Source: Harriotta raleighana (lineage: Eukaryota). Taken from it: 64,000 nucleotides of DNA. A program made the translations under genes and the position numbers. Below the pieces are notes generated by a model, which was not told where the DNA came from, searched no databases, and saw only the letters and a list, made by a program, of their open reading frames with translations. Shown here piece after piece: positions 6,601 through 63,156 of this stretch. Numbering within the stretch: position 1 is the first letter of the stretch; each line of letters starts with the position of its first letter. The stretch lies in the NCBI GenBank assembly GCA_050575255.1, contig JBNZDD010013610.1, positions 1,162,366-1,226,365 on the forward strand. The letters are read 5' to 3'.

Positions 6601-9600
6601 TCAATCCATGACTGTTTGTGGGACACTGCTGTGCGCAATTGGCTGCCGCATTCCGCCCACAAATATACAGTATATTCTGTGAAGTGCTTTGGGACGTTGA
6701 TAAGATGTGAAAAGCGCTATAACAAATGCAAGGATTATTATTATTATTATTAGTGTGACTACAGCTCTCAGGAGAGAGGTATGTCAAGAAATAATAATAA
6801 TAATCCTTGCATTTGATATAGCACATTTCACATCTTCAAGACGTCACAAAGTCAGAATATACAGTAAAGTGAGTTGACTGCATATGTGTGGGAGAAACAC
6901 GGCAGCTAATTGCAAACATCAGTGGTGTTTTATTAATGCTGTCACTTTTATAGAATGCAGAATTAGGCACAAATGTTGTCAAACTTGGAAGCACAACAGC
7001 AAGGGCACTGAAGGAGAAAGATGGATTCACATACTGCAAGCCTGAAATATTATTTGAAGGTAATTCAAGCAAAGGTTGTTGATTGATACTGATGGATTAT
7101 AAATGAGTATGGTCTTAAATAGACCTTTATTAATTGTTGGAAAAATATATATAATTAAGTGCTAAACTTCTTTATCAATTTTTTTTTACTAACTAACAGG
7201 CCTGATGTTACAGCCAAATACTGTTTTAATAACTTTTAATTATTTACAAAAATGAAGAGGGAACAGTATACTTTAAATCCATTTACTTTCACAGTACATT
7301 TGTTTATCCTATGGTGGCTCTTTACTTCAACAGCAATAATTGGGTTAACAGGAATTGATTCAGGAAATCAGCCAGAAGCAAATTAAGGAACATAAGAATT
7401 AGGAGCAGGAGTAGGCCATTCAGCCCTTCGAGCCTGCCCCGCCATTCAATAAGATCATGGCTGATCTTCTGACCTAACTCTAATTACCTGCCCTATCCCC
7501 ACATCCCCTAATCCCTCTATTTTTTAAAAATCTATCGCTCTCAGCCTTGAAAATGTTCAAGGACTGAGCATCTACAGCCTTCTGGAGTAATGAATTCCAT
7601 AAATTCACTACCCTCTGAGTGAAGAAATGTTTCCTCAACTCTGTTCTAAAAGACTGATCCTTAATTTTAAGACTGTGATCCCTGGTTATAAATTCTCCAA
7701 CAGGAGAAACAGTCCCTCAGTATCTACTTTATCCAGCCCTTTAAGAATCTTATATGTTTCAATAAGATTCCCCCTAATTCTTCTGTATTCTAGAGAATAC
7801 AGCCCTAGTTTATTCATCCTATCCTTATAGGTCAGTCCCCTCATCCCAGAAACTAACCTAGTGAATCTACGCTGCACCCCATCTAAGCCATGTATGTCCT
7901 TTTTTAAATAAGGAGACCAAAACTGCACACAATACTCTAGGTGCGGTCTCACCAAAGCCCTATATAGTTGCAGCAAGACTTCCCTATTCTTGTACTCTAA
8001 ACCTTTTGAAATGAACGCTAGCATGTCGCTCGTCTTAGTTGCTTGCTGCACCTGCAAACTAACTTTTTGAGGTGTACAAGGACACCCAAATCCCTTTGAA
8101 TACTAACACCATTTAACCTCTCCCCCTCCAGAAAATAATCTATTCTTTTATTTTTGCTACCTAGGTGAATAATTTCATACTTGCCAACATTAAATTCCAT
8201 CTGCCACCTATTTGCCCACTCCCCTAGCCTATCTATATCTTGTTGCAATCTTTTTGCATCATCCTCAGAGATCACTCTCCTACCTAGTTTAGAGTCATCC
8301 GCGAATTTAGACATATTACATTCAATGTCCTCGTCTAGATCAGTGATGCAAATAGTAAATAGCTGAGGCCCAAGCACTGACCCTTGTGGCACTCCACTAG
8401 TTATATCCTGCCAATTTGAGAAAGTATGCCTTTCTCAGTTCACTCTCTGCTGAGTGTGAACTTAAGACATTCTGTTGATTATAAAGATCACATTGCCAAT
8501 GAAAGCCTTTCCTGCTTTTGAAAGTTAATACAGATGAGAAATTGCAAACTTCAGTTTATCAATAGTAAATTATCTTAATTGGAATCATATCCTACTTTAT
8601 AGAAGTGAATTACACAAAGCGTATTCTACGCTTCACGAAAAGTGCCCAGATATGCAAACAAATTCCACTTTCATTCAATCATTAAATTCAATTGCTTTCC
8701 AGGAATAGAACTGCCGCGGATAAACTATGACTACAATGGCAAAAAGTACCGATACATCTATGCATCCAAGGTTGAGTGGCGTCCACTACCAACAAAGGTA
8801 CAGTGTGTGATTGTAGAGGAGTGAGAAGAGAAAGAAGTAGAACATTTATTATTTATTTGTATATTATTCATTTTTGACGATTTGGATTGGTTTTGTATTT
8901 AAAGAAAGGCACAGTTGTCACGTCACAATTTCTCTGTAAATTCATTGAAAAGTGGTAAATGATAAGTTATAGCTTTGAATGAAAACTAATTTTCACTTAC
9001 CTAAGTCCCTTTTGAATGCAAATGTGGATAAGATGTGGAATACAAGGAAAGTGTGGGAACTATTACTTTTGTTTATATAGGACTCATTGAGGCGGTAGTA
9101 CTGCTGAGCATTTATTCAGCGAAATTCTTGAAAGAGCCCTTCAAATTAGACTTCACAGGTGCTCCAACCTGGGAACTTCAAAACAGAAAAATATGGATTG
9201 CTCTTTGCAATAATAATAATCCTTGTATTTTGATATAGCGCTTTTCATGTCTTCTAGAATATACTGTAAAGAGAATTAACTATATGTATATATATATATA
9301 TGTGGGCAAAACGTGGCAGCCAATTACACACAGCAGTGTCCCACAAACAGTCATAAATTGAAATAATCAAATTTATTATTGTTATATAACAATTGTATAA
9401 GGCATAGTTTGCAAACTTAAATCATTTTAAGCCACACCTATTTTCCAGTTCATTAAAACCAATGAAACAATTATTTTCCAGATCATAAAATGTGATATTC
9501 TAACTAGAACCTGCTATGAATGGAGAGAGGACCAATGCTGGCCAGCAGAGCCAGTCTTTGTCAGAGCACCAGAGGCCAAAGAGGAAGATGATGGTGACTA

Positions 9601-10351: not shown

Positions 10352-11712
10352 TTGAGTAAAACTACAATGAAACTAAATGACTTTTGGAGAAGTACATCAT
10401 CTGAGCGCAATTGGTTGCAGCGTTTCGCCCACAAATATTCTTCAATTCACTTTATAATACATTCTGTGAAGCACTTTGAGATGTCGATAAGATGTGAAAA
10501 ACACTATATCAAAATGCAAGGATTATTATTATCAGCAAGTTAGTGATATCCAAATGGGATACGGACATATGACTCAACAACATGCTCAGAGCTGGCTTAT
10601 ACTGAATTTACAAACTCTGTAGCACTGATTCAAATTCCGAACCCTCTAATTAAAATTATTTAAATTGCTGTGTACATTTAGAAATAATGAAGGCAACTTC
10701 TTATTTACCCATTTGCAGAATAAAACATCACCTGGAGTTAAATGTTCATCAGATAGTTCTTATTTAAAAACAGTGATGATGATCTGAGAAATATGACATT
10801 AATACAATCTACTGATGAGAATGTATCAATATTAATTTTACGTTGATGAATGTAACATTTCTATGCTATTACATGAAGGTTTATGCAGAACTATAGTATT
10901 TGTGGGTGTTCTTAATGTACGTTTTCTGTGCAACCACTAATATAATGAACTATTTTTATATATTGTAATTAATTTTGGTTTCTCGATCAGGGAAAGTTAC
11001 AGAGTTAGATTTGTTCTGATAATTTTTATTGCTGATAATTTTTGGTACATTGTGACAAATATTCAGTTGTCTGTGTGTTAAAATACAAATTTGTGTTGAA
11101 AGCCCTGAACAATTAAAACATAGTTGTTCAGAACGAATTCAATCCATGGATCATGGGGAGGGAATAAATATGTTAATCACTAGGTCACTAAAAAAGTAAA
11201 ATAGTATTACAGTATAAAAAATATTAACAGCGTGCCAAAATGTCATATTACCAAACAATAAGTTTTATTTATCTGAAATGTGATGTTGAGAGTCCTATGC
11301 AACTACACAGCCTTTTAATCCAATTTAGATTTGTTTGAGTGTCATTTAATTAGCATTGCTAAATCCTTATTAAGACATTATTTAATAAATTACTGTGATC
11401 TTAATCTTACCCTAATACAAATAGTTCCCTGAAACAAATAAAGATTTTAAGCTTAAACTATTAAATGCTTCACAGAGTGCGTGACTGTTGGTACATTTGA
11501 TTTTGTATTTTTGTGCGATTATTGGTGCTCCCCATTCTGAAGTGTGGTCAAAAAAGTCAATGCAACAAACAACCGAGTGACCTTGGCAGTTATTCAACCA
11601 CTGGCCTAAAAACAAGTCCAATCAATAAACTAAATTGTGAAGTACTTTACCCCCCTCAAATGTCTCCTTCTGTCCTATGTTCCTAGACAAACCTCTCTTA
11701 CGCCATCCCCCA

Positions 11713-12696
11713 CAGGCCAGTCAATCTAATGTCGGTAGTGAGCAAACTTCTGGAGTCTATAATCAGGGACAAGATAGATCTTCACTTAGAAAGGTATAGG
11801 CTAATAAAGGACAGCCAGCATGGATTTGTTAACGGGAAATCTTGCCTTACAAATCTGATAGAATTTTTTGTTGAGGCAACGGAATGGGTGGACAAAGGCA
11901 GCGCAGTTGAATTAATTTACATGGACTTTCAAAAGACATTTGACAAAGTGCCGCATGAGAGGCTTATTAGGAAAATAGAGGCCCACGGCGTTAAAGGGAC
12001 AGTGGCAGCATGGATCCACAACTGGGTGTGAGACAGAAAGCAGAAAGTTGTGGTGAGTGGCTGTTTTTCAGACTGGAGGGAAGTGTGCAGTGGCGTTCCC
12101 CAGGGATCGATTTTGGGACCACTGCTCTTTTTAATATACATTAATGATCTGGACTTGGGTGTAGGGAGCACAGTTTCCAAATTTACAGATGATACTAAGT
12201 TATGGAGAAGAGTAAATAGTGAGGAGGATAATAACCATCTGCAAGAAGATATAGATAAAATGGTAAAGTGGGCAGACACATGGCAGATCAAGTTTAATGC
12301 AGAGAAGTGTGAGATGATACATTTTGGGAGAAGAAATGAGGGGAGGCAATATAGGCTAGATAGTACAATTTTAAGGGATGTGAGGAAACAGAGAGACCTG
12401 GGGATGTGACTCGTGGTCACAGATTTAAAATAGTTTCCAAACGAAGCAGAGGAGAGTTGAGGAGAAATTTTTCACTTAGCGGGTTGTTTGAATCTAGAAA
12501 GCATTGCCTGAAAAGGTGGTGGAGGCCAATTCGATAACAGCTTTTTAAAGAGAATTAGATTTTTATTGAGGGAGAACAGGTCTGTTAGGTAATGGGGAGA
12601 AAGCTGGGCAGTGGGATTGAGTTGCTCTTTTCAAAGAGGCGGCACAGATTAGATGGGCCGAATGGGCTCCTTTTGTGCCGTAAAATTCTATGATTC
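11713..12696 (+). mobile_element. CR1-type LINE fragment, degenerate RT plus 3' end
   Basis: ORFs 11729-12031 (QHGF..KSCLTNLIEFF..YMDFQKTFDKVPH) and 12050-12409 (GVPQGSILGPLLFLIYINDLD..KFTDDTK) with stops and an internal deletion; 3' end GATGGGCCGAATGGGCTCCT..TTCTATGATTC. Confidence 0.93.
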
Positions 12697-41253: not shown

Positions 41254-41285
41254 GGGCGGAGCAGTCCAGCTGTTTGACTATAATA
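41254..41285 (+). promoter_or_regulatory. GC box and TATA-like element of the SDR gene
   Basis: GGGCGGAG (41254-41261) and TATAATA (41279-41285) about 95-125 bp before ATG 41379. Confidence 0.5.
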
Positions 41286-41378
41286 GCAGGGGCTCCCCTT
41301 TCTCGAAGCAGTGCTAATTTCAGTCCACTTCACTCCATAGTGAACTCCCTGGACTCTCTCTCTTTCTCAGCTATCAGG

Positions 41379-44300
41379 ATGTCTGCTGCTGACAGGACGG
41401 TACTTGTGCTTGGAGGAGCAGGCGTTGTGGGATCAGGGATAGTCAAAGCTCTACTGGAGAAAGGTAGGTGACAGGTGATATTTGCACAGCCAACACCTGG
41501 CTTCTCTTCTCTGTTACACAGAGTTGTATTGAGGCGTGTGCTGTTTGATGGACATTTCAGTTCCAGGCAGAGACTCTATCCTTCTGCTGACATCTACCAA
41601 CCGATTGCTTTTCCAGGAATTCTGAAAACCCACTTTCCACATGATTTGCATGATGATCTCATTGTGTTCTGTTTGCACAAAACAGTGTATTTCTAAAGGC
41701 AACCTGTTGCACAATTAGATTTTCATTACAATGTACAGTATTTATAAGTGATTTCTTCAGAGAATCCATACCTTACACATATTTCATTTTACCTGTACTA
41801 TTAACCTGTAGTAGTTATGAGTTGAAAACGCACTATTATTAAATGCCTGGATTACTATTATTATTTTTTTTCCCTCTGGAGAACTTCACCTCTAAGGCAC
41901 ACGCTTAACATTCCCGTTAAGTCTATCAGCATTTTATGGCATGAAGGATTCCAAATTAACAAAAAAATTACATTGATAAGAGTGTTTACATTACAAATAA
42001 ACATGTATATTTATTATATTTTCTGTATATAGAAATTAAAGTCAAAACCTCACTTTAAAATTCTGTAAGTAAATACAGCAAGTTGATTATTTTGACATCT
42101 ACTCACCTGAAAATTTGGTTTGATTTTTCTGCATTTGACCCACTACAATGCAATGGGTTGCCTGCTGTACTGTTGTGAATCAATCCTGAAAATAATTGAT
42201 GTTGATACTGACACTAAGCATTGCTTCGGGTTGCCTTGCTCACACAGCTGAATGTTTTCAACACATTTAATTTTTTTTCATAATGATGGCCATTTGTGTC
42301 TTAATCCATCTTAAAAAATAATAATTTGTGTGACATGTTTGTGCCCAATTGGCTGCTACATTTCACCTATAAAATATACAATCAATTCACATTACAATAC
42401 AGTACTATGAAGGGCTTTGAGACGTCTCAATTACATGATAAAACCCTATATCAAATGTAAGGATTATTATTATCTTTGAATCCCTCCTTGATCTCTAAAT
42501 CTTTGACCGTGCCTATGGTCACCTCCTGTTTCTCTCTTGTCCAACCCTGGCACTATGCAGCGCTATATACTGTAAATGCAAGTTGTTGCTGTTGTTATTG
42601 AACTGCCTCAGTGCATTTTCTGAGGGTACCATTCATGAATGGTAAAAACTGCATGATGTGGGGATGTTTGGAAATTTCCATTTGATTTCCAGACCTGTTT
42701 GAGATGTACTTATAGTCTTGTTTAGCTGTTGTACACCTACAATCTAAAATCACCTGGCAGCTTGTGAAGTCCTGAAGATCAGTGTTTAGAACACTCGCCT
42801 GACAACGCGAGACCTGTGTTCGAATCCAGGCAGGTCAGGGCGAAACCTTGGGCAAGTTTCCCCTCTCCGCACGCCTAATAATAATTCCTCCAAAAAAAAA
42901 CAATAATAAAATTGGTCATTTCAATCCACGACTGTTTGTGGGGCATTGCGGTGTGCAATTGGCTGCCGCGTTTTGCCTACAAATATACAGTCAATTCACT
43001 TTACAGTATATTCTATGAAGCTCTTTGAGACATCTAGAAGACGTGAAAAGGATTATTATAATATTATTATTAGCTATGAGCGTCATGCTACATTATGTTA
43101 ATGCTACAGTTTATCAATCCCGATGAACTCTTACACTGCCAGCAGGTCTAGCTATTCTTTCTTTTGACAGTAAAATATTTTCATTAAAAAAGTTTACAAA
43201 AGCAATTTAATAAATATCCCTATTGTTGTCCTCTGCCCCCTTTATCACCCTTTCCATAGACCTGCGATACACAATGTCCTTCATTTGTTAATTGAATTGC
43301 ATTCATCCCCCTTTCCCTTTACACAATCCTCAGATGTGTTTGAGACATGTCAATATCAGATATATCAATGGATAATAGCATCATGTAAATAAAGTTCAAT
43401 AGTCTCAGATTTTGTCTTTAGCATTGAACAGGTGAATGTTGAAGCAAATTAATCAAATTTTAAATGAAATACAAATAGAAAGATCACCTGATGTATTATA
43501 GATCCTTTTGAAGTAGTACTTGCATCACTAAAGTGTTAATAGACGGCCTTGTTGGCTTTACAACATTGGAAGATTACCATATTGTATGTTGTATCACTAA
43601 GCAGTAAGTCAACAAATACTTTCATTGAAAGCAGTGCTAACAATCAGCTATAACAGAATAAAACTGGTACAAAGGTGCTGTACACGTCGGGAAGGCTTTA
43701 GTGCAGAATATGAACTGTGTATAATTAGATTGGAAACCTAGAGGAAACTTCTCAACTAAAATTGTAGCTCAGAGTATTATTTAAATTGAGCTTTGATCTT
43801 GATAACATGATAAGGTGCTTTATCAAATGTAAGGATCATCATCGTTATCAAAAATGCTTAGAATATATGGGAACTGTTTGAATATAATTTCTGCATAAAA
43901 ATTAAGTTTTTTTAAAATCCCTTCTTTAGGTCCCGCCTAATTGTTTACTATTTGCATGAATATTAAAATTAAATTCTCCTCCCAGTGCACTGTGATGATT
44001 GATAATTGGTCTCGCTTTCTTAGGCTGTCGTGTAGCGGTTATATCCAGAGATGCAGCCCGGCTGGATAAACTGAAAAGCTTTGTCCCGGCCTCCACCCGA
44101 GAAAGGCTTGTCACTTTGGTTGGAGATGTGGGTAAGATGTCTTTTTCCATGCACAATTTGATGCGAATAAAATTCTCTCCAGCACCCAGTTCCTATTTCG
44201 TCAAGGAATTGCATTTGTCTTTGAATACTCTGAGACGCTAACCTGTGTAAAGGGCGCTTTATAAACATAAGTTATTGTTGGATTACATTTTTTTAATGAA

Positions 44301-47300
44301 AAGAATAATTGTAAAGTAACACCTATTACAGATAGTTAACTTCCTTTAGCATCTGAATTACCATATTCAGAGGTGTTAAGAGGCCAAGGCATTCTGCTCC
44401 TGCCTATTTCTTTTGAACAAATTTCCACATCAATTTATTCTGAGTAAACAAAGGTGCAAACCAATTCCTTTTTATGCAAAAGGACCAATCACAACAATAT
44501 AAACAAGTTCAAAATATATGCTCTCTACCCAAATAGATGTTTAATGTGGATCTGGGCTAAAATCCCCAAAATATTTATTGAAGGAATGATGAATGTTTGA
44601 AAATATCTACCGAGAAAGGTAAAAGTGACCAAAACAGTCAGGGTTATTCAAAGTACAATTTGGACCTAAGATTTGAGGCTTAATGAACCAAAGGGATGAG
44701 TTTTGGTGAGTGTACTAATTGGCAATCTCATCTCAATGTTTCTTGAAGAATGATTTCTGATAATAAAAGTTTAAGTTTAATGAATAATACATTCTGATCC
44801 AATCGTTTAATAAAGCATCAATGCTTAGTAATGTCACGTTGGATTTGATTGGACTTTTGAATAACTTTTCCAGGGACTGAGGCGGGTGCCGAGGCAGCTA
44901 AGAACAATGTGATGAAGGAACTGGGGAAAGTGACTGATATTGTATCATCCTTGGGGTTCAGCTGGTGGCAAGGGGGCCCTCCCCACACTCAGTCAGTAGA
45001 GGAGCTGCACAAGGTAAGAGCCAGAACCCAAACCTTCAACCTTGAGATATCGAACTTTGTTGTACATTAGTTGATTTCACCACTTTCCAATCCCGTATCG
45101 TTGTTCTGTTTGTGACATTATGAGCTTTGTTAAGGCTCCTTCCAAAGAAGCCAGAGTGGCACAAGGTATAATAGAGATATATAATAGAGGTATAATAGGT
45201 TTAAATATTGTTCTAGCTCGTATTAGTGAAGATGAGTCACAGCGCATTAACTTTTATTACAATGCTTGACATCAGAAGTTCTTTAAAGGACCAATTTGGC
45301 AGCATGCGCTTTGATTACAAGCCAGCTGAAAACCATTTCCCTGTTGATGCCAGGTCAGAGAGCTAAGCCTTTGTTGTTGAGCCACTTTTCTGGTGATTGC
45401 AACAGCAAAGTTTGTGTCAATTGTCCCCTTGTTAATAACCTCATTAAATGAAATCATTTTTTATGATTTGTTCTAAAATGTTCAAATGCCTTTGTTGCAA
45501 TCACACAAGGTTTGAGAGTCTAATGGTGATTTGGCTGCTTAATTTAGTTTGACTGATTTCATTAGCTATCTTGTTTAAATAAGCAATATTGGTTTGCATG
45601 GTTGCTTTCCTCCTGTGCGAAATACCAGCTCAGATTTCTGTTTTTAACTCGTATGTCTTTCCCAGATTAAATGAAGCAATCATTGTCATTTACACATTTT
45701 GTTGGTAAGATCACACTAAATCTATTAGGTGTGTCTGACAGCTCTTTTCATTGAATTATAGTTTTTAATATCATTTAATGATCCCCTCCCAACCAAAGAA
45801 CATTATTTTAGTTAGAACACGTACAGGAGCCTACCCGGGAGTCTGTAAACTCAACACGTTGTCATGGTGCTAACATAACACATTATCCTGCAGGTGCTGA
45901 ACACCCTATTGCTAAGCACTTTTACATCCTGGAAGGCATTCTTTCCTCTGGTTAAGGATGACCCTAATGCATCGTACACATTTGTAACTGGTGAGTAGAC
46001 AGCTTCTGTTTTCTCCTGACATGAAAAGCGCTATCTATACAAGTGTAATTTTGTTATTGTTGTTTTACGTAATCACCTGACCACCGGGTATAGACAACTT
46101 TAACATTAACCTCACCAATTGATTGATATTTCCACAAGAAGTTTAACAATAATAATAATCCTTGCATTTGATCTAGTGCTTTTTCACATCTTCTAGACAT
46201 CTCAAAGCGCTTCACAGAATATTCCGTAAAGTGAATTGATTGTATATTTGTGGGAGAAACGCAGAAGCCAATTGCACACAACAATGTCCCACAAACAGAT
46301 ATGGATTGAAATAAACAATTTATTATAGATTTTTTGGGACGTATTATTATTAGGCATATGGAGTAAGGATTATTAGGGAGTAAGGAAACTCGCCCAAGGT
46401 TTTGCCCCGACCTGCCTGGATTCGAAATGCAGGTCTCACGCTTGTAAGACGAGTGTTCTAACCAGTAAGCTACAGGACTTTACTTGTGTTTACACCTCTG
46501 GAGCAGAATCCCATGATATTTACTGAAGGCAAGTTCCCATACAGCGTTAACCTGTAATAAACAAGCAGAGTGATGGGCTGCCTTGCCAAATCAGTTGAGT
46601 TCAGATCCACTGGAATCATATTCTAGTTATTAATTATTCTCAAAGCACTTCACAGGATATACTACCGAGAATTTTAGCTGGCTTTCACCTACCGTGACCA
46701 ACTATTTACCTAGTGATTTGGGTGTTTTGCATATTTTTTGTGGCGATTTGCTTTGTGGCATTTCATAGTCAAATCAGCTTGCCGATCAACAACCCTGCAA
46801 TACAAGTGAAGCAGCTATGCTCCTGGCAGTTGGCAGTGCTCTCACCTCTTTCTGCTCTGCACAGAACAAAAAACATTGCAACCAGTGTAACAAGGTGAAA
46901 TTGGGTAGAGTACCTCAACAGAGCTAAAGAGTGCTAGTTTGCGGTGTTGCATCTGGTTGTAACATGTAGCCAAGTACCAGGCACACGCTGAGAGAGAATC
47001 CAGTAATGTACAGACTGGATACTATAATGGGCCTGACCATTGCTACTGTCAAGAAATAAATTCATGCACACCATTGAAGTAACCATTTTGCTGAAAAGTG
47101 CTCACAGTGCCAGTTTCAAATCATCAACCTCAACAAAGGTTATTGCAATATGGATATGTAATAATAATAATGCTTGCATTTGATACAGCACTTTTCATGT
47201 CTTCTGGACGTCTCAAAGAGCTTCACAGAGTATACTGTAAAGTGAATTGACTATATATTTGTGGGCAAAAATGCGGCAGCCAATTGCACATAGTAGTGTC

Positions 47301-50300
47301 CCACAAACAGTCGTGATAGAACTGACCAATTTTGTTATTTTTTTCGGAGGGATTAATATTATTATGTGCAGGAAACATACCCAGTTTATAGAAGTGACCC
47401 AACTTCTAGACACTGATATATTCACCTCCAAAATGCACAGTGGCAGTCTATTCTGTGAAGTGCTTTGAGATGACCTCCAAATGTGAAAGGTGAAAGGTGC
47501 TGTATCAAATTATATTCTATTGTTGACCTCTTGGATATGAGACGTCATTTAGATGACTGATATAGCCTTCGTTGTTTACAAGATATAATTCACTTGTTGT
47601 CTTCTCAGCCATGATTAGGAGTAAAATCGTAGCAGCTGAAACAATTATTTATGAAATTCATGACTTCAAGTTGAGGCTCAGTGCCCATAGCATTCCATTA
47701 ATTTTGCTTTGAACTCACCAGTGACTCATACACAGTGTGCTCTAACAATATGGTCTCTTTTATCACTTTACTAAGTTTTGCACACGATGATCTGAATCTC
47801 TTATTTGCATTATTAACCATTAGTGACATCAGACACTTCACAGGCTGAAAAACAGCTGAATGTTTCTACACCCAATTATTCCTTATCATGTGAAGGACCG
47901 GAATAATTAAAAAGGTTAGGTTAAAATGAATCATAAATCAAAATACTATTTGTCACAGCTGAAGGGTAACTCCCACATTGCTTAGGGCAGAATGACGGTA
48001 AGGCTCATTGTGCTATGTGACAGTGGCATGCAGGTCTGGGCTGGCAGTCCTCTGTACAGTAGTATGTTTTGATCCCAATCTAAGCAGCGACAGGTCTTTT
48101 ATAACATTAAAAATGCGCCTTGAGCTCACTCTATACCACTCCAATAAACTGCTCATTTGTTAGCTAGAGTTGAGTTTTGACAAGGCACTAGTAAAAAGGA
48201 AAGTGTGAATATTGCACATACATATGTTTGAGGTTTTGGGGGGAGGGGTCTCATTAACTTGTTCAATCAACCCGTTACCCTCTATTCCTTGGGGCAGTGT
48301 ACAGTACATAGAAATATTTACTGCTAGTGGCACAAACAGCTCAAAGTACATGACTTCCCAGCACCGCAGAACATTTTTGCTGATGATGGAACGTTGTCGA
48401 GGCTGATATGTTGATACTGGAACACATGTTGACAGTCTTCTTAATCAGATTGAACATATAATAGTTATCCAATTCGAAACCTTCCAATACATTCAGTACT
48501 CTTGCAGTGCATCTGCCTTCTATTACTAAAGCAATTTCTTTAATCAAAGAGTGAAATGCTACAAGTCATCATAATTTAATAATTAAGGTGTGATTGAATC
48601 TGTTGCTTCGTTTTACAGTTTGGTAAATTAGACTGCAAAAACTTCTGTAATTGTGTATATTTCAAATCCTTTTATTATGGCAACTAGTATTTTCATTATA
48701 ACCAATCTGCTTTATCCTGAAGTTCAGATTGCAGAGTACGGCTTTGAAGATTTCCACCATTGCATGATGTCCGTGACTTTAATAACTCTGGATTGTTGCC
48801 AATGATTCAATCTTACGCTGTAGTGGTGCACATCTCAGGAAATCAGCCAAAAGATGTACGATACGGAAAACGATTACTCAGACACGTAATATCAAGAGCT
48901 GGCATATTTTTGTGTGGTTCAAAGAGTATGTACTTTTAACTTAAATTAGCAGTTTAACCAAAGAAGGAAACTACTTCGTTATTGGATGAATGAATACATG
49001 ACTTGATAATTGCAACCTAAAGGCGCAAGTGGAAATCAGTTATTGGGTCATATTTACCAACTGCCCAATGATTTTGTAAAGTATTGTTTGGGTTCTTCTA
49101 CATGAGGAAGAATGTGATAAAATGCTGAATTTATCATTAAGCCTGAAATTTGATCCTACCCTGATTAAAATGTCTACTTCTTTTATGCCAGTTGTTCTGA
49201 TCCTTTCATCATGCGAGGAGATGAATTGGCATTTACATTTCTCTCGCTCTCTCTGTTTCTGTCTCTGTGTGTCTTAGCCAAATGTCACATTTTATGTTGA
49301 AAGCATATAAACCTGGGAGGTGGATTTGAGGTTATACATTTGAGGAAATAAATGGCAAGAAAAATATCTGTTCGGTATTTCTTAAAAGATGTGCCATCTC
49401 CATCCCTACCGATTGAGCAGAGTTTGTTGGAAACTTTCCAGATATTTACACTTTTACCACGATTTAGCCAAGAACAGGTTTCACTTGAATAAATGTGCAG
49501 CATGGTGTGAGATGGAGGCATGTTTCCCAGGGAATCAACTGTTCTCCACCTATACACGCAATTTCATTTCTCAACATCTCAGACAAACTGAAGGGCAATG
49601 TATTCAGCTGAGGAGTTTGACTCCTGTAGGACTCTGTGTTTGACCCACATTCTTCTCGTTCCGCAGGAGGTGCAGGAGAAAGACTGCTCATGCCAGGCAC
49701 TGGTTTCCTGACTGTGGGGGCGGCGGGGGCTGTGGCGTTCTGTCAGATTATTAGAGAAGAGTATCCTGATGTACCCTGCAAAGTGAACGAGGTAGTGATC
49801 CCTATGAGAACTTCTTAATGTAGAACGGGCGCAACATAAATGCAAGTTGTCGTCGTTGTAGCTCTTGTACTCCACCTGATCAACGAAGGGTAATTGGCCA
49901 TTTAGACTTTGTACACAAATGATTTCAAGCTTAAAGATGAAATAAATTGGCAAAATTCAATTCGCATTCATGCAAGGTTCATACCCACCAACTGCTGGTG
50001 AGTTAGATACCTAATACGTACATATTTGTTACATTTAACTGTTTCCATCTGGCAAGGAGGCAACCAAGAAGATGCTACATCTTTCTTCATCAGAGTCGTT
50101 CAGTGATAATTATAACCCTTCTGGCACGTGTGGCTTGTGCATTTGTGTGCGGCAGGGTTGGGGAATGGGAGTACAATAAAGAAGTAAAGCATTTTTATCA
50201 AGAATAATATTGACAAGAATGTATAAACATAAGGTAGAGAACTCCCGAATGTAAAGGCTGAATTATTTCACTGTATTAGTATTGTGTTACTAAGCACAGG

Positions 50301-50594
50301 TACACAGCCACACTTCTTTAAATCATAACATCCCTTTTTGACATTTGATGTACTTAAGGTGAGAACTTGATATGCTGCCTCGTTAATTTAATAGCTTCCT
50401 TGGTTTCTTTCCGACAGGTGAAGCTTAACTTGGGTGTTGCGACCCCAGACCGGATTGCTCCTGGTTTCGTGAATCACTTGGATGTGGGTGAAGCCATGGC
50501 CACTATATTGGAGAAGAAGTGTGTTTCACATCATGTGATGTGTGTAAACACACCAGCCGACCTCAAAACCCTGATTGTCGAAGGCAAAGTCTAA
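41379..50594 (+). CDS. Uncharacterised atypical short-chain dehydrogenase/reductase (NAD(P)-binding Rossmann fold), 6 exons, 243 aa
   Basis: Exons 41379-41463, 44024-44131, 44874-45013, 45894-45990, 49667-49791, 50418-50594; all GT-AG; 732 nt in frame. MSAADRTVLVLGGAGVVGSGIVKALLEKGCRVAVISRD..LVGDVG..DIVSSLGFSWWQGGP..SYTFVTGGAGERLLMPGTGFLTVGAAGA..KVNEVKL..LIVEGKV*. Poly(A) signal AATAAA at 51361-51366. Confidence 0.9.
42766..43071 (+). mobile_element. tRNA-headed Deu-core SINE (SDR intron 1)
   Basis: Head (diverged), B box GTTCGAATCC, core and (ATT)n tail. Confidence 0.85.
46147..46480 (-). mobile_element. tRNA-headed Deu-core SINE (SDR intron 4)
   Basis: Complete element on minus strand; another partial minus copy at about 47160-47360. 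Confidence 0.85.
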
Positions 50595-52879
50595 CCTTCC
50601 AAACAATGACCGTTGGAATCACTCTCCAAGGGCATGCCAAGGCAACGGTCCATACCACTTGTTTAGCTCAAAGTCTTGTAACAGTATAGTACAGTAGTGT
50701 GCACCTTATTGTAGAGTCAATTATGCGCCTGATCACAACCCAACAAAGAGAGCCCAAGTTTCACATTTAATTACCTGATTGCTCCTTATTAAATGAAAGG
50801 GCAAGCAAGGCAAACTTTAAGTTAATATCTGGCAGTAACTTCGCATGATTTGTTAATAAGTTCTCACCTTTACTCTCAGGAAATTCAAGTTACAAACTAT
50901 TTTATGGACATTTGAGTAAAGTAAATTTGCCTCTATTGATTCTGCTCTTAAGGGAAATTTGCTTTCATCCAGATCAGAAAAATACAATTCTGTATACTAC
51001 TGGTATTTGCTTCAGTGCTGAAATGCATGGATCCACAGTTATTGGGGCTGGTCAGAATTGTTCTGTGCAAATTGACATTGACGATCTAAAACATAAATCA
51101 TCCCTTCACTATTACCTAGCTCCATTACTGAAGCAAATTGCCCACTACTTTAGTCAACCTGTAGGGTATTTGCTGATGACAGTTCTTGAGGTGACTTTTG
51201 TTTAACCAACATTGCATGCACAATGTAGCCAATGAATAATAGGTCTAATTATTGTACTGGTACTCTTTTTGACATTTTCTCTGTAAAATGTAGTTAACAT
51301 TCTCCATTACTTGATGTAAATTGATGTTTTGTTGCAGTTTTAATCAATGTCATTTGTAAAAATAAATATGTTTGTTATTCTAAAATTAAATCAGCCCAGT
51401 CATTCCTAATACAACGTATAACTGGATTAATGATGACGAACAAAGATATGAACCATAAATAAGGTATCTGGGTGTTCCAAAATCATTCCACTTTATATTG
51501 GCAACCACGGGATTCAAATAAGGAAAACCAAATCCCTATTCTGTCCATGTCCTGGCTATTTTCATGGAAAGGAAAATGCTGGAGAAAATTAAAGAGGAAG
51601 GCAGCATGCTCATGACAACATCATTGAGTATGGTTTCACGGTAAAACCACGACTGTGCTTGGCTCTAGGTATATAGGAGTGAAAAGATTTGTTGGATGTT
51701 GATATAATAGTTGACAGATGTAGTCAATTATTAAACATGAAAGATTGATTTGATTGCCCAAACAAGCTGGATGTCAAAATTCCTGACAATAAAACGCAGG
51801 GTCTCAGTCTCGCTCAGCTAGCAGTACTTTTTGCTTCTGATGTTAGAAGTTTGTGTTTGAAGGACCACACCAGGCTTAGGGTCTATATAGTGATTTTCCA
51901 CACTGATTTTCAGGTGGAATACTGAGGGAGCTGGTTGGGCAGAATTACAGGTGAGAAAGTCTCAGAGAGAAAGCAAAATTCTGCCCACAAAGGGGGAAGC
52001 AATGGCATGGGTGTTCCAGCAATGGAAAATCACTGCAAAATTCCAATCAACCGTGGTTTGCAAGGAACAACTGAGGACATCATAAACATATAACGTAACA
52101 TCTTCAGCTGTTTGAAAATCTGCTTTCAATAGTTGTGTTCTGTGACTGAGCCGGAAAGTGAGCCATTTCTTATGAAGATCTGCCAGGCCACACCATTTTT
52201 TTTTCAAATTGTGGGTTTCCGATTTAAATATGTATTTGGACAAATTTCTTTAGTTTGTCTAATTTATATTTTGGCGCTCGCCTTCCGTGACGGTGTGACC
52301 CTGACGTCAGTGTTGCATAAAAAGATTGGGTTCTATTCAGCAAAGGCAGTAATGAATTAACCCTAATAATAATAATCCTTGCATTTGATATGGCACCTTA
52401 TCATGTTATTGAGATATCTCAAAGTGCATCACAGAATATAAACTAAAGTGGATTGACTAAGTATTTTGCAGATGAAATGCAGCAGCCAATTGCGCACAGC
52501 AGTGTGTCACAAACAGTCGTGGATGGAATGAACAAATAATTATTTTTCTTTTCTACCTATATCTATTTATGAGATAACCACAAACAATATTAATGAATCT
52601 GCTGCTCCTTAATAAATACATTGCTCACTTCAAATAATTCCGATTAATTTGCTACTAAGCAAGATGAAGAGTTAGAAATGTGATGTGCGAACAAAACTAA
52701 ACACACTAAAAATCAAAGGGAAATACAGAGGAATGAAATCAGAAAAGAAAGGTAATGTGATAAAATTCTACAGCCTGTGGGGATGTTCCTCCTATTGCTC
52801 TGCAACAAAAAGGCAAAATATTCTGCAGCAAAATATAAGCATCACATCACCAAAACCTGTCCTTATGTTAGCAATGTCA

Positions 52880-53680
52880 ACAGCAACAACAACTTCAATT
52901 TATATAGAGCCTTCCACGCCGGACGGCTCCTCAGAGCGCTTCACAATGGCAGATCCCGGGACCGAGCCAGGGGCAAGGGTAGAAAGGTGGAACTCCTGTG
53001 GCTCAGTGGTTAGAGCACTCGCCTTACAAGCGTGAGACCTGTGATCGAATCCAGGCAGATCAGGGCGAAACCTTGGGCAAGTTTTCTTACTCCACATGCC
53101 TAATAATCCCTCCAAAAAAACCACAATAATAAAACAGTCAACAATCCATGACTGTTTGTGAGACACTGCTTTGCGCAATTGGCTGCCGCATTCCGCCCAC
53201 AAATATACAGTCAATTCACTTTACAGTATATTCTGTGAAGCGCTTTGCGACGTCAATAAGATGTGAAAAGCGCTATATCAAATGCAAGGATTATTATTAT
53301 TATTATTATAAAGGCGCGGTCAAAGAGAAAGGTCTTTAGCTGGGACCTGAAACTGGGAAGGGATGGGGTGAGGCGAAGGGAATGAAGAAGGGAGTTCTGG
53401 AGCCTTAGGGCATAGTGGCTGAAGGCACAGCCACTGAGGGTGGAGCACGGGAACACAGAGGACGCCAGACAGTGGAGCGAAAGCAACGGGTGCTGGTTTG
53501 AGGAGAGAGGACATCAGAGAGGTAGGGGGTGCAGAGGAGTGGAGGGATTTGAAGACAAGGGTGAGGATCTTGAAATCGATCTTCCCAGGGAGAGGGAGCC
53601 AGTGAAGTCTGGCAAGGGCTGGGGTAATGGGGGAGCAAAGTTTGTTGCAGATGAGAATGTGGGTGGCAGATGTCAAGTTC
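52880..53680 (-). mobile_element. L2-type LINE 3' fragment interrupted by a + strand SINE
   Basis: Minus-strand ORFs (ITPALARLHWLP..IDFKILTLVFKSLH; AFSHYALRLQNSL..FRSQLKTFLFD) at 53253-53682; L2 tail resumes at 52880-52988 on the other side of the SINE. Confidence 0.75.
52989..53308 (+). mobile_element. tRNA-headed Deu-core SINE, full length and little diverged
   Basis: GGAACTCCTGTGGCTCAGTGGTTAGAGCACTCGCCTTACAAGCGTGAGACC head, core, GAAAAGCGCTATATCAAATGCAAGG(ATT)6 tail. Confidence 0.9.
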
Positions 53681-56552
53681 AAAATCGATACCAGAAGCCA
53701 TCAAAAGCTATGCCGTGCTGATCGGCTAAGTTTTACTTTGAGTCCATTTGCACAGTAGCGCTTGTTGTTACAAGCAACATGATTTTTTAAACTATATAAT
53801 GAAAACAGTTTCAAGTTCAATCCTTATAGAATTCACCCCATTTGCTATTGCATTGTAAACTTTGGAAAGGTGTTTGCCAGATGCTAGGGTGATTTTTGAA
53901 AATGGTGTCAGTTCTTTAGTCAACTCACGCAAGCTTCTTAACCCTTTCAGTCATTGTAAGTCCAAAAAGCTCACGGTTGAAAATTACTTTCATCTGCCTG
54001 CAACTTACAAGTAATTTAAGATCCATACCCAATCGTGAACATACAACCATTGAAGCTACAATGTTATTATCACAGGATAGTGTGGGCTAATTGAAAATCA
54101 ACCTAATAAAAAATTAAGTTAGACAGTTGCAGTGCTGAATAACACATGTGTTAATAATGAGGACTAGTCTAATATTTTGGAATGCTACAGATTTCAAAAT
54201 ACACTTTAACAATGCCAGGACTTCAGCAAACCACCGGGAAAGGGGAGACTTTCAGCTTGAATTCATTTCCGGAACCTGAGAATATTCTCTCTCTGCCAAT
54301 TTTCGTTCCTCCTCTCCTATCCCGAGGGCATCACACACCTTTTACTTTCTATTGCAAAGGGGTTCCACTGGTCCAGTTCGCCATCCAGTACCATTGCCTC
54401 AGAGGAAATAGTTTCTCCCTATTCACCGAGTCAAAACCCTCATGATCTTGCACACCTCCATCAGATCCTGTCTTAATCTTCCCAGAAACCTGCCACAGTG
54501 ACATTTCGAACCAAAGGAAAGTTATACATTTAAACTGTCTTCTGACAGTGATCAAGCAGAACTGGATTTGCAAATTTGACTGAAGGAGAAGCAGAATAAA
54601 TTATGCAAAAGAATAAGAACTGAAAGCATATTGAATTACCGACTGTATTGTGTGGTTTGTACTCTTAGTAAAAGCTACTGCACTACATCTCAATCGCTTA
54701 AGGTAACAGATTAAAAAAAATCTTGTAACTAATGATGGATGACTTTGGAGTTCTTGCTTCAGCTACAATGTTAGGTTAGCTTTGAATTAATATGGTTTAT
54801 TTTTGTAGGTGCTGTTGTTAACTCTTGCATCAATACATCAAATTGCAAAGATTGTGCCAAAATCATAAATATTTTTCTCTACTACCATCAATGAATCAAA
54901 TAAAAATAAGGATCAAACATTTGTCTTCTGAGTCAGTTCGGAGCTTTACTCAGCGATGGCATGAAATAAATAAGTTAAAGAATGCTGTCCTCCACTATTG
55001 GCTTGACAAATGAGCTGAGTTGAGACTAACATAAGAATGCTTTCATGGATTAAACCACTACCACAACAGCACCAACAAAATTACACTTGCGCCTCTCACA
55101 TCAGGAGGCAGTCCCTTCAACAGTAGTATGACAAGGAGGAGAGAGGGGAAAGATTCCTAAAAATAGTATTTGGTAATAAAGCTTACAAAAAAAAGGAATT
55201 TGAAATCTAAAAGATAATAATGATAAATAACAATAATTATTGCATTTGATATAGCTGTAGATATCCCATTGAGACATCTGAAAGCACTTAGAATCATAGA
55301 AGGTTTCGGCACAGAAGGAGGCCATTCGGCCCATCGAGTCGGTGCTGGCTCTTTGACAGTCACTTTTATTAACCCCAATCACCAGCTTTCTCCCCATAAC
55401 CCTAGAAGCCCGTCTTCCCCAGATACCTATCTAGTTCTCTCAGAATATCCTGTAAAGTGAATTGACTACATACTTTACTGGGCAAAAGATGCCTTTTGAC
55501 AGTGAAGCTCTGATACAGGTAAGCACTATGAGATTCTTTCCCATGAGCATTAACAAATGCAAGTTGTTAATGTAGCAGCAGCAATAAGCATTATCATATC
55601 AATGGCAAACAGGTTGATGGTGGAACAAATTTAGATTTGCCGTTCAGCCATTTATCTCATCTCATCAACTAGCAGGATAGTGCACATGTTGCATCCATTA
55701 CTTTGCGTGTGTTACACAAACTCACAATGTGCTGCTGTAAAAAAAATTCTATTATCATGCCAATTAGCTTTCATCTCCTTCATAACATTTAGCTTTTTTA
55801 TCTTTTAATAATAATAATCCTTGCATTTGATATGGAGCTTTTTACAGCTTCCAGACGTCTGAATTGATGAATTATTTACAAGGGGTTTGAAGTTCAGTGT
55901 CAGTGGATGTTAAAAAGCAATAACAAAAAAACCGTTCAAAGCAATTGGCGATATTTTGACGATATCACTTTAATGATACCGTATTTCAGTCCAAAGGATA
56001 TGCACCCCAAGCACTATGCCACGTAATGCTACAATGAGATGTAAATGTTAACTGTTAACTGAACGCTCTGTTCCAAAGCTTTGCCAGCATGGACATCATT
56101 TATTTTGTTAGAAACATCAATAATTAAGTCTCTCAGAGATAACGCTGGGCATGCCTTAAGAATCAATTAATCAACAGTCTACAGCACATTTCACTTGCCT
56201 GTTAATTCCTTCCACTTTTATTTAAGACTGAGCACAACTCATTCCTTCTGGGAAAATAAATTTAATATCAGCAAATTAAAGTTACAGGCATTTATAACAG
56301 TCCAAACCCCCTTTTTTCTCTAGATATAATTAATATACAGTAGATTCCAGCTTGATTAAAAGATAATAATAATCCATGCATTTGATATGGGCCTTATCAT
56401 GTCTTTAAAATGCTTTGTACATCTACTGTATAGTATACTGTAAAATGAATTGGCTGTAGAGATTTAAAAACACGACTATGATCACTGTACAGTTTTTATA
56501 GTAGTTAAGGCTTATCGAAGACATTTTAGAACCAATGTGCACTCTAAAAAAG

Positions 56553-60619: not shown

Positions 60620-63156
60620 GGGTAGACCTCTTCCTGGTGCAGAAAACAATGCAATCTTGTTGCAGAACGGCTGATAGAAGTCCACATCAGACTATAAATT
60701 TAGCGAATACAGATGTGCAGCAATAACAAGAGGAATCATGTTTCAGCATTATTCGTCATTGTGATCGACACATTTTCATTCCTCTCATCATCACCCAAAG
60801 TGATTGTAACCACCAACAAACAAAAAAAGCCTCAGAGTTTTCTGTGCTCAAAATACACGTTTGTGTTGTGAGAGCAAAGAGAAGAGTTCTTCTGCAGTGT
60901 AGACCCCAATGCACAAACACAGGCCATTAACGCCTAACACTGTCATTCGAAGATCCTACTATAGATTTTTAAAGGTGCATATGTTTGCCCTTTTGATTTC
61001 ATTTTGCTCTAATGCATTCTCTTGAAGCAATGAATCGTGTGGATGGATAATTTGCCCCGAAACTCTAGAACATTCTTCCTCTATCCCTCCGCATTGCCCC
61101 TTCCTTTCCCATCGACTGTGTTCCAGCACCTTGGGACATTCTCCTGACGTGAAAGGAGCTCTGTAAATGTAATTTTGTTGGTGTTACAGCCACCTCCCCA
61201 TCTCACTGGCTCGGATTTGTGCTCCACCGCTGTTAAGCCCTACCCTGCATGAGAGGTGCTGTATAAATGCAATCTGTTGTTGTTGTTGATTCCTCAAGGC
61301 TCCGGTAAATCACTTGCATTTGCCACACGTGGACACATATGTTACTGGACACAAGTGTCAAAAACGTTCACTATCTGACCAGCCATTCTCCTCAACTTTT
61401 ATTCACCAATGTACACTCCTAGGCATTGTTAGATCATGGATTTCTACTCCACTCAGTCTCTCAGTTGTAGCGTAGATAATATGACTGACATCAGCAAACA
61501 ACTCATTTGACAGTGATTGAACCTGGGACCTTTCCCATCCAGAGGGCTTGGTGCCAAAGCACGCAATGCAACTCATCCGTGAGTCATCACAGGGGAAATA
61601 CAGTACGGAATTTAGCTTTAAAAAGTTGCAGAATTTAGCTTAGCCGAATAAAATGTTACAGAAGCTGCCTTTGTCGGATAAAATTAATTGCAGATTTGGC
61701 ACATATTTTCAAATGAAGACTTTGACAGATCTGCCGAGTCAGTATCCTCTATTATCATTTGGCAAAGGCTGTTCGCCTCAGAATGATCTGCTAGCCACAG
61801 GTATAGACCTGTTCCAATGGATTTGTTCAGTTACCATCCCATTTCACTTGGCCAACTCAAATAAACTTGTTTCAACAAAACCCAATTNGGGTAGACCTCT
61901 TCCTGGTGCAGAAAACAATGCAATCTTGTTGCAGAACGGCTGATAGAAGTCCACATCAGACTATAAATTTAGCGAATACAGATGTGCAGCAATAACAAGA
62001 GGAATCATGTTTCAGCATTATTCGTCATTGTGATCGACACATTTTCATTCCTCTCATCATCACCCAAAGTGATTGTAACCACCAACAAACAAAAAAAGCC
62101 TCAGAGTTTTCTGTGCTCAAAATACACGTTTGTGTTGTGAGAGCAAAGAGAAGAGTTCTTCTGCAGTGTAGACCCCAATGCACAAACACAGGCCATTAAC
62201 GCCTAACACTGTCATTCGAAGATCCTACTATAGATTTTTAAAGGTGCATATGTTTGCCCTTTTGATTTCATTTTGCTCTAATGCATTCTCTTGAAGCAAT
62301 GAATCGTGTGGATGGATAATTTGCCCCGAAACTCTAGAACATTCTTCCTCTATCCCTCCGCATTGCCCCTTCCTTTCCCATCGACTGTGTTCCAGCACCT
62401 TGGGACATTCTCCTGACGTGAAAGGAGCTCTGTAAATGTAATTTTGTTGGTGTTACAGCCACCTCCCCATCTCACTGGCTCGGATTTGTGCTCCACCGCT
62501 GTTAAGCCCTACCCTGCATGAGAGGTGCTGTATAAATGCAATCTGTTGTTGTTGTTGATTCCTCAAGGCTCCGGTAAATCACTTGCATTTGCCACACGTG
62601 GACACATATGTTACTGGACACAAGTGTCAAAAACGTTCACTATCTGACCAGCCATTCTCCTCAACTTTTATTCACCAATGTACACTCCTAGGCATTGTTA
62701 GATCATGGATTTCTACTCCACTCAGTCTCTCAGTTGTAGCGTAGATAATATGACTGACATCAGCAAACAACTCATTTGACAGTGATTGAACCTGGGACCT
62801 TTCCCATCCAGAGGGCTTGGTGCCAAAGCACGCAATGCAACTCATCCGTGAGTCATCACAGGGGAAATACAGTACGGAATTTAGCTTTAAAAAGTTGCAG
62901 AATTTAGCTTAGCCGAATAAAATGTTACAGAAGCTGCCTTTGTCGGATAAAATTAATTGCAGATTTGGCACATATTTTCAAATGAAGACTTTGACAGATC
63001 TGCCGAGTCAGTATCCTCTATTATCATTTGGCAAAGGCTGTTCGCCTCAGAATGATCTGCTAGCCACAGGTATAGACCTGTTCCAATGGATTTGTTCAGT
63101 TACCATCCCATTTCACTTGGCCAACTCAAATAAACTTGTTTCAACAAAACCCAATT
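60620..63156. repeat. Apparently identical 1268-bp direct tandem duplication separated by a single N (likely assembly artefact)
   Basis: 60620-61887 repeated at 61889-63156 (offset 1269; identical ORFs at 61653 and 62922); N at 61888. Confidence 0.92.

Follow-up and report, generated by a model that had tools for sequence, protein, structure and literature searches.

SDR chemistry is usually tied to a Tyr-Lys pair, and the gene described here raises the question of what a protein of that fold can do once the pair is gone. The gene lies in a 64,000-nucleotide stretch of Harriotta raleighana DNA, which in its full length we call the window. A first-pass annotation of this stretch had read the gene as a clean spliced ORF of six exons and 243 amino acids. 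Our analysis bore this out: six coding exons, separated by five introns that are all of the GT-AG type, give 732 nt including the stop and without an internal stop codon (Table 1). Every motif quoted in that annotation is present in the joined frame, and the product aligns end to end with orthologues of 243 aa.

Table 1. Coding exons of the SDR gene and candidate signals at its flanks (window positions)
Feature	Position	Strand	Remark
Coding exon 1: ATG, beta1, glycine-rich dinucleotide loop (Gly12, Gly15, Gly18)	41379..41463	+	Three glycines in 121/121 vertebrate rows
Coding exon 2: beta2 and Ser36-Arg37, the putative site for the 2'-phosphate of NADP(H); beta3 and Asp63	44024..44131	+	
Coding exon 3: beta4 and aromatic loop Ser89-Gln97 in place of the NNAG motif	44874..45013	+	
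Coding exon 4: long helix carrying Leu116 at the Asn slot and Thr120, where non-chordate relatives have His; beta5 and Thr143	45894..45990	+	
Coding exon 5: Gly144 at the Ser slot, its codon split; Glu148; Leu158/Ala162 at the Tyr/Lys slots; beta6	49667..49791	+	
Coding exon 6: region of the substrate-binding loop, final helices and stop	50418..50594	+	
Acceptor-like pyrimidine tract with CAG, end 8 bases 5' of ATG	41352..41370	+	
GC-box GGGCGG (41254) and TATAAT (41279) words, putative promoter	41254..41284	+	
Candidate poly(A) hexamers at 50788 and 51361	50788..51366	+	

The gene had also been credited with a promoter of its own. The GC-box and TATAAT words are indeed there, but the CpG observed/expected ratio around them is 0.25–0.45, with no CpG island, and a stronger acceptor-like site stands at 41370. 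The pyrimidine fraction at that site is 0.875, compared with 0.56–0.81 in the five real acceptors, and 18 of the 1867 YAG sites on the + strand are as pyrimidine-rich. Given this strong acceptor-like site, a non-coding exon upstream of the ATG is possible. Seven GC boxes were counted against 3.9 expected, and 8 of 100 shuffles held at least seven. Light regulation was considered and rejected, as the D-box-like word at 41236 is no commoner than chance (31 found, 32 expected).

Sequence comparison identifies the gene as the orthologue of zebrafish si:dkey-238o13.4 (Xenopus tropicalis LOC100489732). A 243-aa protein of the elephant shark Callorhinchus milii (P0001) is 93% identical to the window protein from end to end, five shark and ray proteins are 79–85% identical, and a shark protein that bears the name si:dkey-238o13.4 (P0011) is 83% identical. 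When exon 3 alone served as the query, 105 proteins were obtained from 108 candidates, with Callorhinchus milii the best. The orthogroup is one clade of uniform length, with 65–85% identity over jawed vertebrates outside the holocephalans, and nothing substantive distinguishes the window protein from it. Wrong automatic names are widespread for the vertebrate gene, its orthologues being called PECR, HSD17B14, L-fucose dehydrogenase or RhlG, with many others left as si:dkey-238o13.4. Searching the literature by gene names and locus ids, with most subscription journals outside the search, we obtained three expression tables and one gene-loss table but no dedicated study. The orthogroup is annotated in databases, yet unstudied. 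The likeness to unnamed fish genes and to bacterial SDRs with a WWQG motif, which the first-pass annotation had pointed to, was matched on both counts by sequence search.

We then located the catalytic slots by alignment to two classical SDRs of solved structure, gluconate 5-dehydrogenase (1vl8) and an archaeal SDR (3l77). Alignment to 1vl8 places Leu116, Gly144, Leu158 and Ala162 in the slots of Asn, Ser, Tyr and Lys, respectively; alignment to 3l77 gives the same Asn, Ser and Tyr slots and puts Ala162 within one residue of the Lys. Neither sequence alignment puts a Tyr/Lys pair in the active site, in agreement with the earlier claim that Ser, Tyr and Lys are replaced. All four replacements are invariant in our vertebrate set (121/121 rows, of 237–246 residues), indicating that they are not the product of decay, and no vertebrate row has a Tyr in 152–163 (0/121) or a Lys/Arg in 159–165 (0/121). 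Our distant set consisted of 102 non-vertebrate-like rows of 218–300 residues, taken from 150 matches listed of 2641. Here a Tyr occurs in 152–163 in 3/102 rows, Lys/Arg in 159–165 in 10/102 and YxxxK in 1/102, and none of 45 bacterial loci, which were chosen by their WWQ motif, has any of the three. Across the sequences compared, the family is without the Tyr/Lys pair throughout, from bacteria to marsupials.

The protein likely still binds NADPH, to judge from the residues of its cofactor site. Ser36 and the three loop glycines occur in all 121 vertebrate rows; the classical TGxxxGxG cofactor motif is absent, and GxxGxxG spacing is found instead (121/121). The Arg after beta2 had been put forward as an NADP(H) signature, and Arg37 is indeed near-invariant across the family (121/121 vertebrate, 98/102 distant and 45/45 bacterial rows); a basic residue at this place is described as a mark of NADP(H) use (PMC2792337). 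The beta3 Asp, which had also been noted, is present in the window protein (Asp63) but is Asn in 74 of the 121 vertebrate rows.

A different residue attracted our attention on the helix that precedes the Tyr/Lys slots. Slot 120 is His in 92/102 distant rows and 43/45 bacterial loci and is kept from bacteria to molluscs, whereas vertebrates have Thr there (119/121) and the tunicate-side rows have Pro or Ala. In classical SDRs, the helix bearing this slot packs against the Tyr/Lys helix, and the His may therefore, from its place in the alignment, fill the space left by Lys. A literature search on the slot-120 His and on a tetrad-less active site returned nothing relevant, most subscription journals lying outside it, and none of the solved structures searched showed such a catalytic layout.

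The wider family was explored with a profile search of 1.84 billion representatives, which gave 2641 matches at E 0.001. Thirty look-ups named a minority of the rows kept: Styela, Ciona, two snails, a mussel, a sponge, an amoebozoan, two green algae and a bacterium. Look-alike clusters from fungi, haptophytes and bacteria in the Atlas are leads only; one Atlas cluster is auto-named "aklaviketone reductase". In a quick tree built from 15 vertebrate rows, 71 distant rows and 19 bacterial loci (105 in all), midpoint-drawn and without an outgroup, the vertebrates join Styela and one unnamed protein with a support of 96, and the named eukaryote rows all fall on one side (93, not starred). Since tunicates are the nearest relatives of the vertebrate proteins, this argues for inheritance and loss, not for transfer into vertebrates. 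The sequences fit an old family, inherited through chordates with later loss; in a tree without an outgroup, an old transfer at the base is possible. The first-pass annotation had proposed a patchy distribution through loss or ancient transfer, to be checked by homology search and phylogeny. Loss fits, whereas transfer into vertebrates does not; and the searches returned the fish, invertebrate and bacterial members it foresaw, but mammals were not empty, as platypus and marsupials have the gene.

Vertebrate patterns run against bacterial genomes found relatives in 0 of 41 stretches, whereas a 12-sequence bacterial alignment used as the query found family members in 48 of 75. These 48 loci come from Acidobacteriota, Chloroflexota, Bacteroidota and others. 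From their flanking ORFs we picked 179 and scanned 105. The bacterial members are mostly solitary among mixed metabolic genes, with no common operon; their neighbours include several MarR/HxlR regulators, amidohydrolases, isochorismatases and NADP oxidoreductases, and this context names no pathway. HxlR/MarR regulators divergent from the SDR unit adjoin it directly in five loci and stand two genes off in a sixth. The three divergent HxlR cases represent one Chloroflexota clade and have no Cys in the first 70 residues. Regulators of the HxlR type often govern quinone and electrophile reductases (PMC3351151), and the bacterial context offers a weak lead toward a role in quinone stress.

To place the protein structurally, we used an AlphaFold2 model of the Callorhinchus orthologue (pLDDT 87.4, with residues 147–151 uncertain). 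Foldseek returned human PECR (1yxm) at the top, with a TM of 0.77 and 20% identity, and fold comparison gave Z values of 23–24.5 to many SDRs, with ties, the match at Z 24.5 having an rmsd of 2.9 over 227 residues. Of the Pfam models, adh_short passed its cut-off (54.4 bits versus 26.6). NmrA stayed below (23.9 versus 27, residues 6–89 only), as did NAD_binding_10 (18.6 versus 27.2), which we take to be the family of the BLVRB-type flavin/biliverdin reductase. Among the matches listed, there was no NCBIfam model at its cut-off, no family member among solved structures (SDRvv being outside the comparison) and no NmrA-type fold. The protein is an SDR by fold, is not a classical SDR by motif and is not PECR. 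It shares with classical SDRs (1vl8, 3l77/3tn7 and HSD17B14) the one-domain Rossmann fold of ~250 residues and may share their two-long-helix dimer; unlike them, the window family has GxxGxxG and lacks both NNAG and the Asn-Ser-Tyr-Lys set, with 12–23% identity in fold alignments.

The most conserved segments are the loops round the would-be substrate site. In loops 89–104 and 143–163, 28 of 37 columns are conserved at 97% or more, whereas the whole protein has 82 such columns among 243; a test by 242 circular shifts never gave as many as 28. Gly92, Ser94, Trp95 and Trp96 are present in 121/121 vertebrate rows, and position 148 is acidic in 120/121.

A two-copy prediction for the Callorhinchus orthologue with NADP included scored 0.94 at a pLDDT of 95, compared with a score of 0.00 for the best control, and three dimer runs agreed in 100% of contacts. 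These models predict a homodimer through the two long helices. In calibration, the dimer mark was reached by 21/30 microbial pairs and 0/23 microbial single chains, and by 17/29 eukaryote pairs (7/16 for animals) and 0/30 eukaryote single chains. Because just 1/7 eukaryote pairs without an older solved relative reached it, likeness to solved SDR dimers may explain the score of 0.94. The predicted interface covers 15 of the 37 loop columns, and 22 of its 40 columns are conserved. Self-pairing would explain the conserved outer helix face without a foreign partner. Loop columns outside the interface are conserved in 17/22 cases versus 43/181 elsewhere, although the columns are not independent of each other and a Fisher test on these counts exaggerates the certainty. 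The conserved residues among them include Phe93, Ser94, Trp95, Trp96, Gln97, Thr143, Thr155 and Phe157.

On the strength of the sequences, the models and the analogies below, we give roughly an even chance to the following reading: the protein would be a homodimeric reductase that uses NADPH and acts on a small substrate activated beforehand, similar to biliverdin reductase B (BLVRB), with protonation by solvent or a small polar residue. NADPH would sit at the glycine loop and Arg37, and a flat conjugated substrate of the quinone, flavin, bilin or enone type would be stacked by Phe93, Trp95, Trp96 and Phe157 where the missing Tyr and Lys leave room; the pocket-facing residues are taken here from SDR topology and the interface list. 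Hydride would be transferred directly, and the proton could come from solvent or from Thr143, Ser94 or Glu148. In the non-chordate relatives, the slot-120 His likely takes part of the Tyr/Lys role, whereas the chordates would do without it.

The working model for such a reductase is provided by BLVRB and PECR, NADPH-preferring enzymes of the SDR fold that work without the canonical Tyr or tetrad. Human PECR functions with Phe for Tyr, and BLVRB without Asn, Ser and Lys (PMC2792337); bilins, flavins and quinones are all reduced by BLVRB, for which solvent is the likely proton source (PMC10215512). Neither is orthologous to the window protein. BLVRB is described as relying on a pocket Ser, whereas the window family has Gly there with an adjacent Thr, and PECR and the window protein are 20% identical. 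The sequences favour catalysis in that the polar residue at slot 120 is kept from bacteria to molluscs, as expected if chemistry demanded it. The ligand-binding pocket of a sensor would, however, show equal conservation, and the loss of the slot-120 His in vertebrates fits a loss of catalysis.

The possibility that comes next, and to which we give distinctly less weight, is a non-catalytic binder of NADP(H) or a small molecule, a redox sensor or carrier resembling NmrA/NMRAL1 and perhaps derived in chordates from a His-using enzyme. It keeps this weight because several tetrad-less SDRs are regulators and because chordates lost the His: vertebrates have replacements in all four tetrad slots, the His of the family is gone in both vertebrates and tunicates, and, once the predicted interface is set aside, the two pocket loops contain no conserved Tyr, Lys or His. 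Several Tyr-less SDRs are reported to be non-enzymatic, namely NmrA, HCF244 and CSP41 (PMC8659612). NmrA/NMRAL1, CSP41, SDRvv (likened by description only) and Q9HYA2 are all SDR folds with altered or missing catalytic residues, and Q9HYA2 (3lf1) is among the tied top fold matches. As described, however, NmrA keeps a Lys (MxxxK) and Q9HYA2 has TxxxR, whereas the window family has neither Lys nor Arg there and its non-chordate members have His on the preceding helix. A binder is opposed by the strongest conservation lying in inward loops, by a conserved outer helix face that coincides with the predicted self-interface, by the partial NmrA match below the Pfam cut-off and by best fold matches that are classical SDRs. 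The first-pass annotation had left the choice between a sensor and an enzyme of different mechanism open, and rightly so, as both readings stand.

A role as inactive subunit in a hetero-oligomeric SDR, of the kind seen in BbsCD or petunia benzaldehyde synthase, is improbable, although pseudo-enzyme subunits that have lost their tetrad residues are known (PMC13418739) and the helix interface is conserved. Just 3 of the 48 bacterial loci have another, separate SDR-like ORF within 5 kb (a fourth match overlaps the gene itself), which argues against a co-encoded catalytic partner, and self-pairing is predicted for the Callorhinchus orthologue. Moreover, Arg37 is fully retained, as is the glycine loop; the inactive petunia subunit, in contrast, is described as having lost the cofactor Arg.

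Still less probable is a true peroxisomal trans-2-enoyl-CoA reductase (PECR), the name given in many automatic annotations. Human PECR (1yxm) is the top match in both sequence and Foldseek searches and itself lacks the Tyr, but its 20% identity is tied with many SDRs, the sequence match covers residues 5–129 only and the names of the orthologues conflict between sources. The C-terminus of the window protein is not of the SKL type, which is the peroxisomal signal.

The window also contains exons of the RPE65/carotenoid-oxygenase family at 4.6–5.4 kb, typed to family level. Between them and the SDR gene lie CHMP1A, an exon of a CDK11-like kinase, which from gene order we take to be CDK10, and a SPATA2-like gene. 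This order presumably matches that of human 16q24.3, where we know of no SDR after SPATA2L. The first-pass annotation had allowed that the proximity of the oxygenase might be coincidental, and at ~36 kb and three genes apart, nothing links the two. A retinal or apocarotenal reductase partnering the oxygenase is the least credible reading, for although an RPE65-family gene lies within the window and the pocket is hydrophobic, that gene stands far off behind three others, no RPE65-family match at E 1e-8 occurs among the 105 scanned bacterial neighbours, and simple carbonyl reduction by SDRs is described as depending on the Ser-Tyr-Lys set (PMC8659612, PMC2792337).

Finally, we assessed which vertebrates have kept the gene, using the best 120 of 222 matches and, for a profile built from ten amniote sequences, the best 120 of 223. 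The matches listed cover cartilaginous and bony fish, coelacanth, lungfish, amphibians, turtles, lizards, tuatara and alligator. They also include platypus and four marsupial clusters (69–70% identity where measured), whereas the first-pass annotation had recognised no mammalian orthologue. No named row is from a bird, snake or placental mammal among the best 120 of 223 with the amniote profile (15 rows are unnamed), a search in which an intact placental or bird copy would be expected to outrank teleosts. Table S1 of PMC10416458 places frog LOC100489732 among the genes lost in placentals; its row is filled for opossum, platypus, Tasmanian devil, two lizards and six fish but empty for four birds. 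The same table is blank for turtles and crocodile, where orthologues were found here, and its blanks are therefore not proof of absence. SDR domains are also among the eutherian-lost genes of PMC3296468, a study that starts from chicken genes. Placental mammals appear to have lost the gene, a loss already in print as that row of PMC10416458, and birds probably lost it too.

Four points are new here: the tetrad is lost across the family, a His stands on the preceding helix, chordates have lost this His, and birds are a probable second case of gene loss. The surprise is limited because the gene already has database entries and other SDRs without the tetrad have been described. These elements can be joined into one history, which as a whole we consider rather unlikely, in which the family replaced Ser-Tyr-Lys by a His on the post-beta4 helix, chordates dropped the His, which left either a sensor that is a pseudo-enzyme or a reductase protonated by solvent, and placentals and birds lost the gene independently. 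If the losses were independent, a metabolic or redox function would have been kept by fish, amphibians, reptiles, monotremes and marsupials. The substrate would point to a pathway abandoned by placentals and probably by birds. The His-present and His-absent subfamilies constitute a natural test of whether an SDR pocket has changed its mechanism or become a pseudo-enzyme.

Orthologous complete frames of 237–244 residues occur on assembled contigs of 917–1046 bases, which are most simply read as spliced transcripts and would mean that the orthologues are transcribed. The gene appears in expression tables of zebrafish brain after injury (PMC5752677) and tilapia gonad (PMC5877550), and in that of trout liver the orthologue is down 4.5-fold on oestradiol (PMC4556936).

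The SDR gene is preceded in the window (4498-35269) by the RPE65-family gene, CHMP1A, a CDK11-like kinase and a SPATA2-like gene, and CpG-rich patches lie at ~21.5-22.2 kb and ~24.8-25.7 kb. A strong splice-acceptor-like site ends 8 bases 5' of the SDR gene start codon, and its sequence suggests that there may be a non-coding exon upstream of that codon.

The repeats within the SDR gene introns gave 16-30 overlapping matches within the window and resemble a tRNA-derived SINE. Three ORF fragments were also found, which we take to resemble LINE reverse transcriptase.

Sequence features in and around the SDR gene
Feature	Window position	Strand	Location or likeness
Strong splice-acceptor-like site	41352-41370	+	5' of start codon
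Interspersed repeat	42325-42476		SDR gene intron
Interspersed repeat	42762-43056		SDR gene intron
Interspersed repeat	46144-46480		SDR gene intron
Interspersed repeat	47157-47362		SDR gene intron
ORF fragment	7686-8434		LINE reverse transcriptase (presumed)
ORF fragment	11687-12471		LINE reverse transcriptase (presumed)
ORF fragment	53320-53721		LINE reverse transcriptase (presumed)

An exact duplicate of 1268 bases (60620-61887 and 61889-63156) flanks position 61888, the only N in the window, and most likely reflects an assembly overlap at a gap.

At five of the bacterial loci (L001, L015, L017, L033, and L045), the SDR gene adjoins amidohydrolase, isochorismatase, DoxX, DUF1275, or alginate-export-family genes, making a common, as yet unnamed pathway possible. 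At another locus, the bacterial SDR appears to be divided between two frames (L034:4867-5639).

Among eukaryotes, several copies of the si:dkey-238o13.4-family gene were found in the mussel Dreissena (relatives P0191, P0310, and P0311) and two in the bonefish Albula (P0016 and P0017). A 541-residue member in the Chlorella sorokiniana cluster (P0226/P0323), to which a protein labelled omega-amidase also belongs, is possibly a fusion or a merged gene model.
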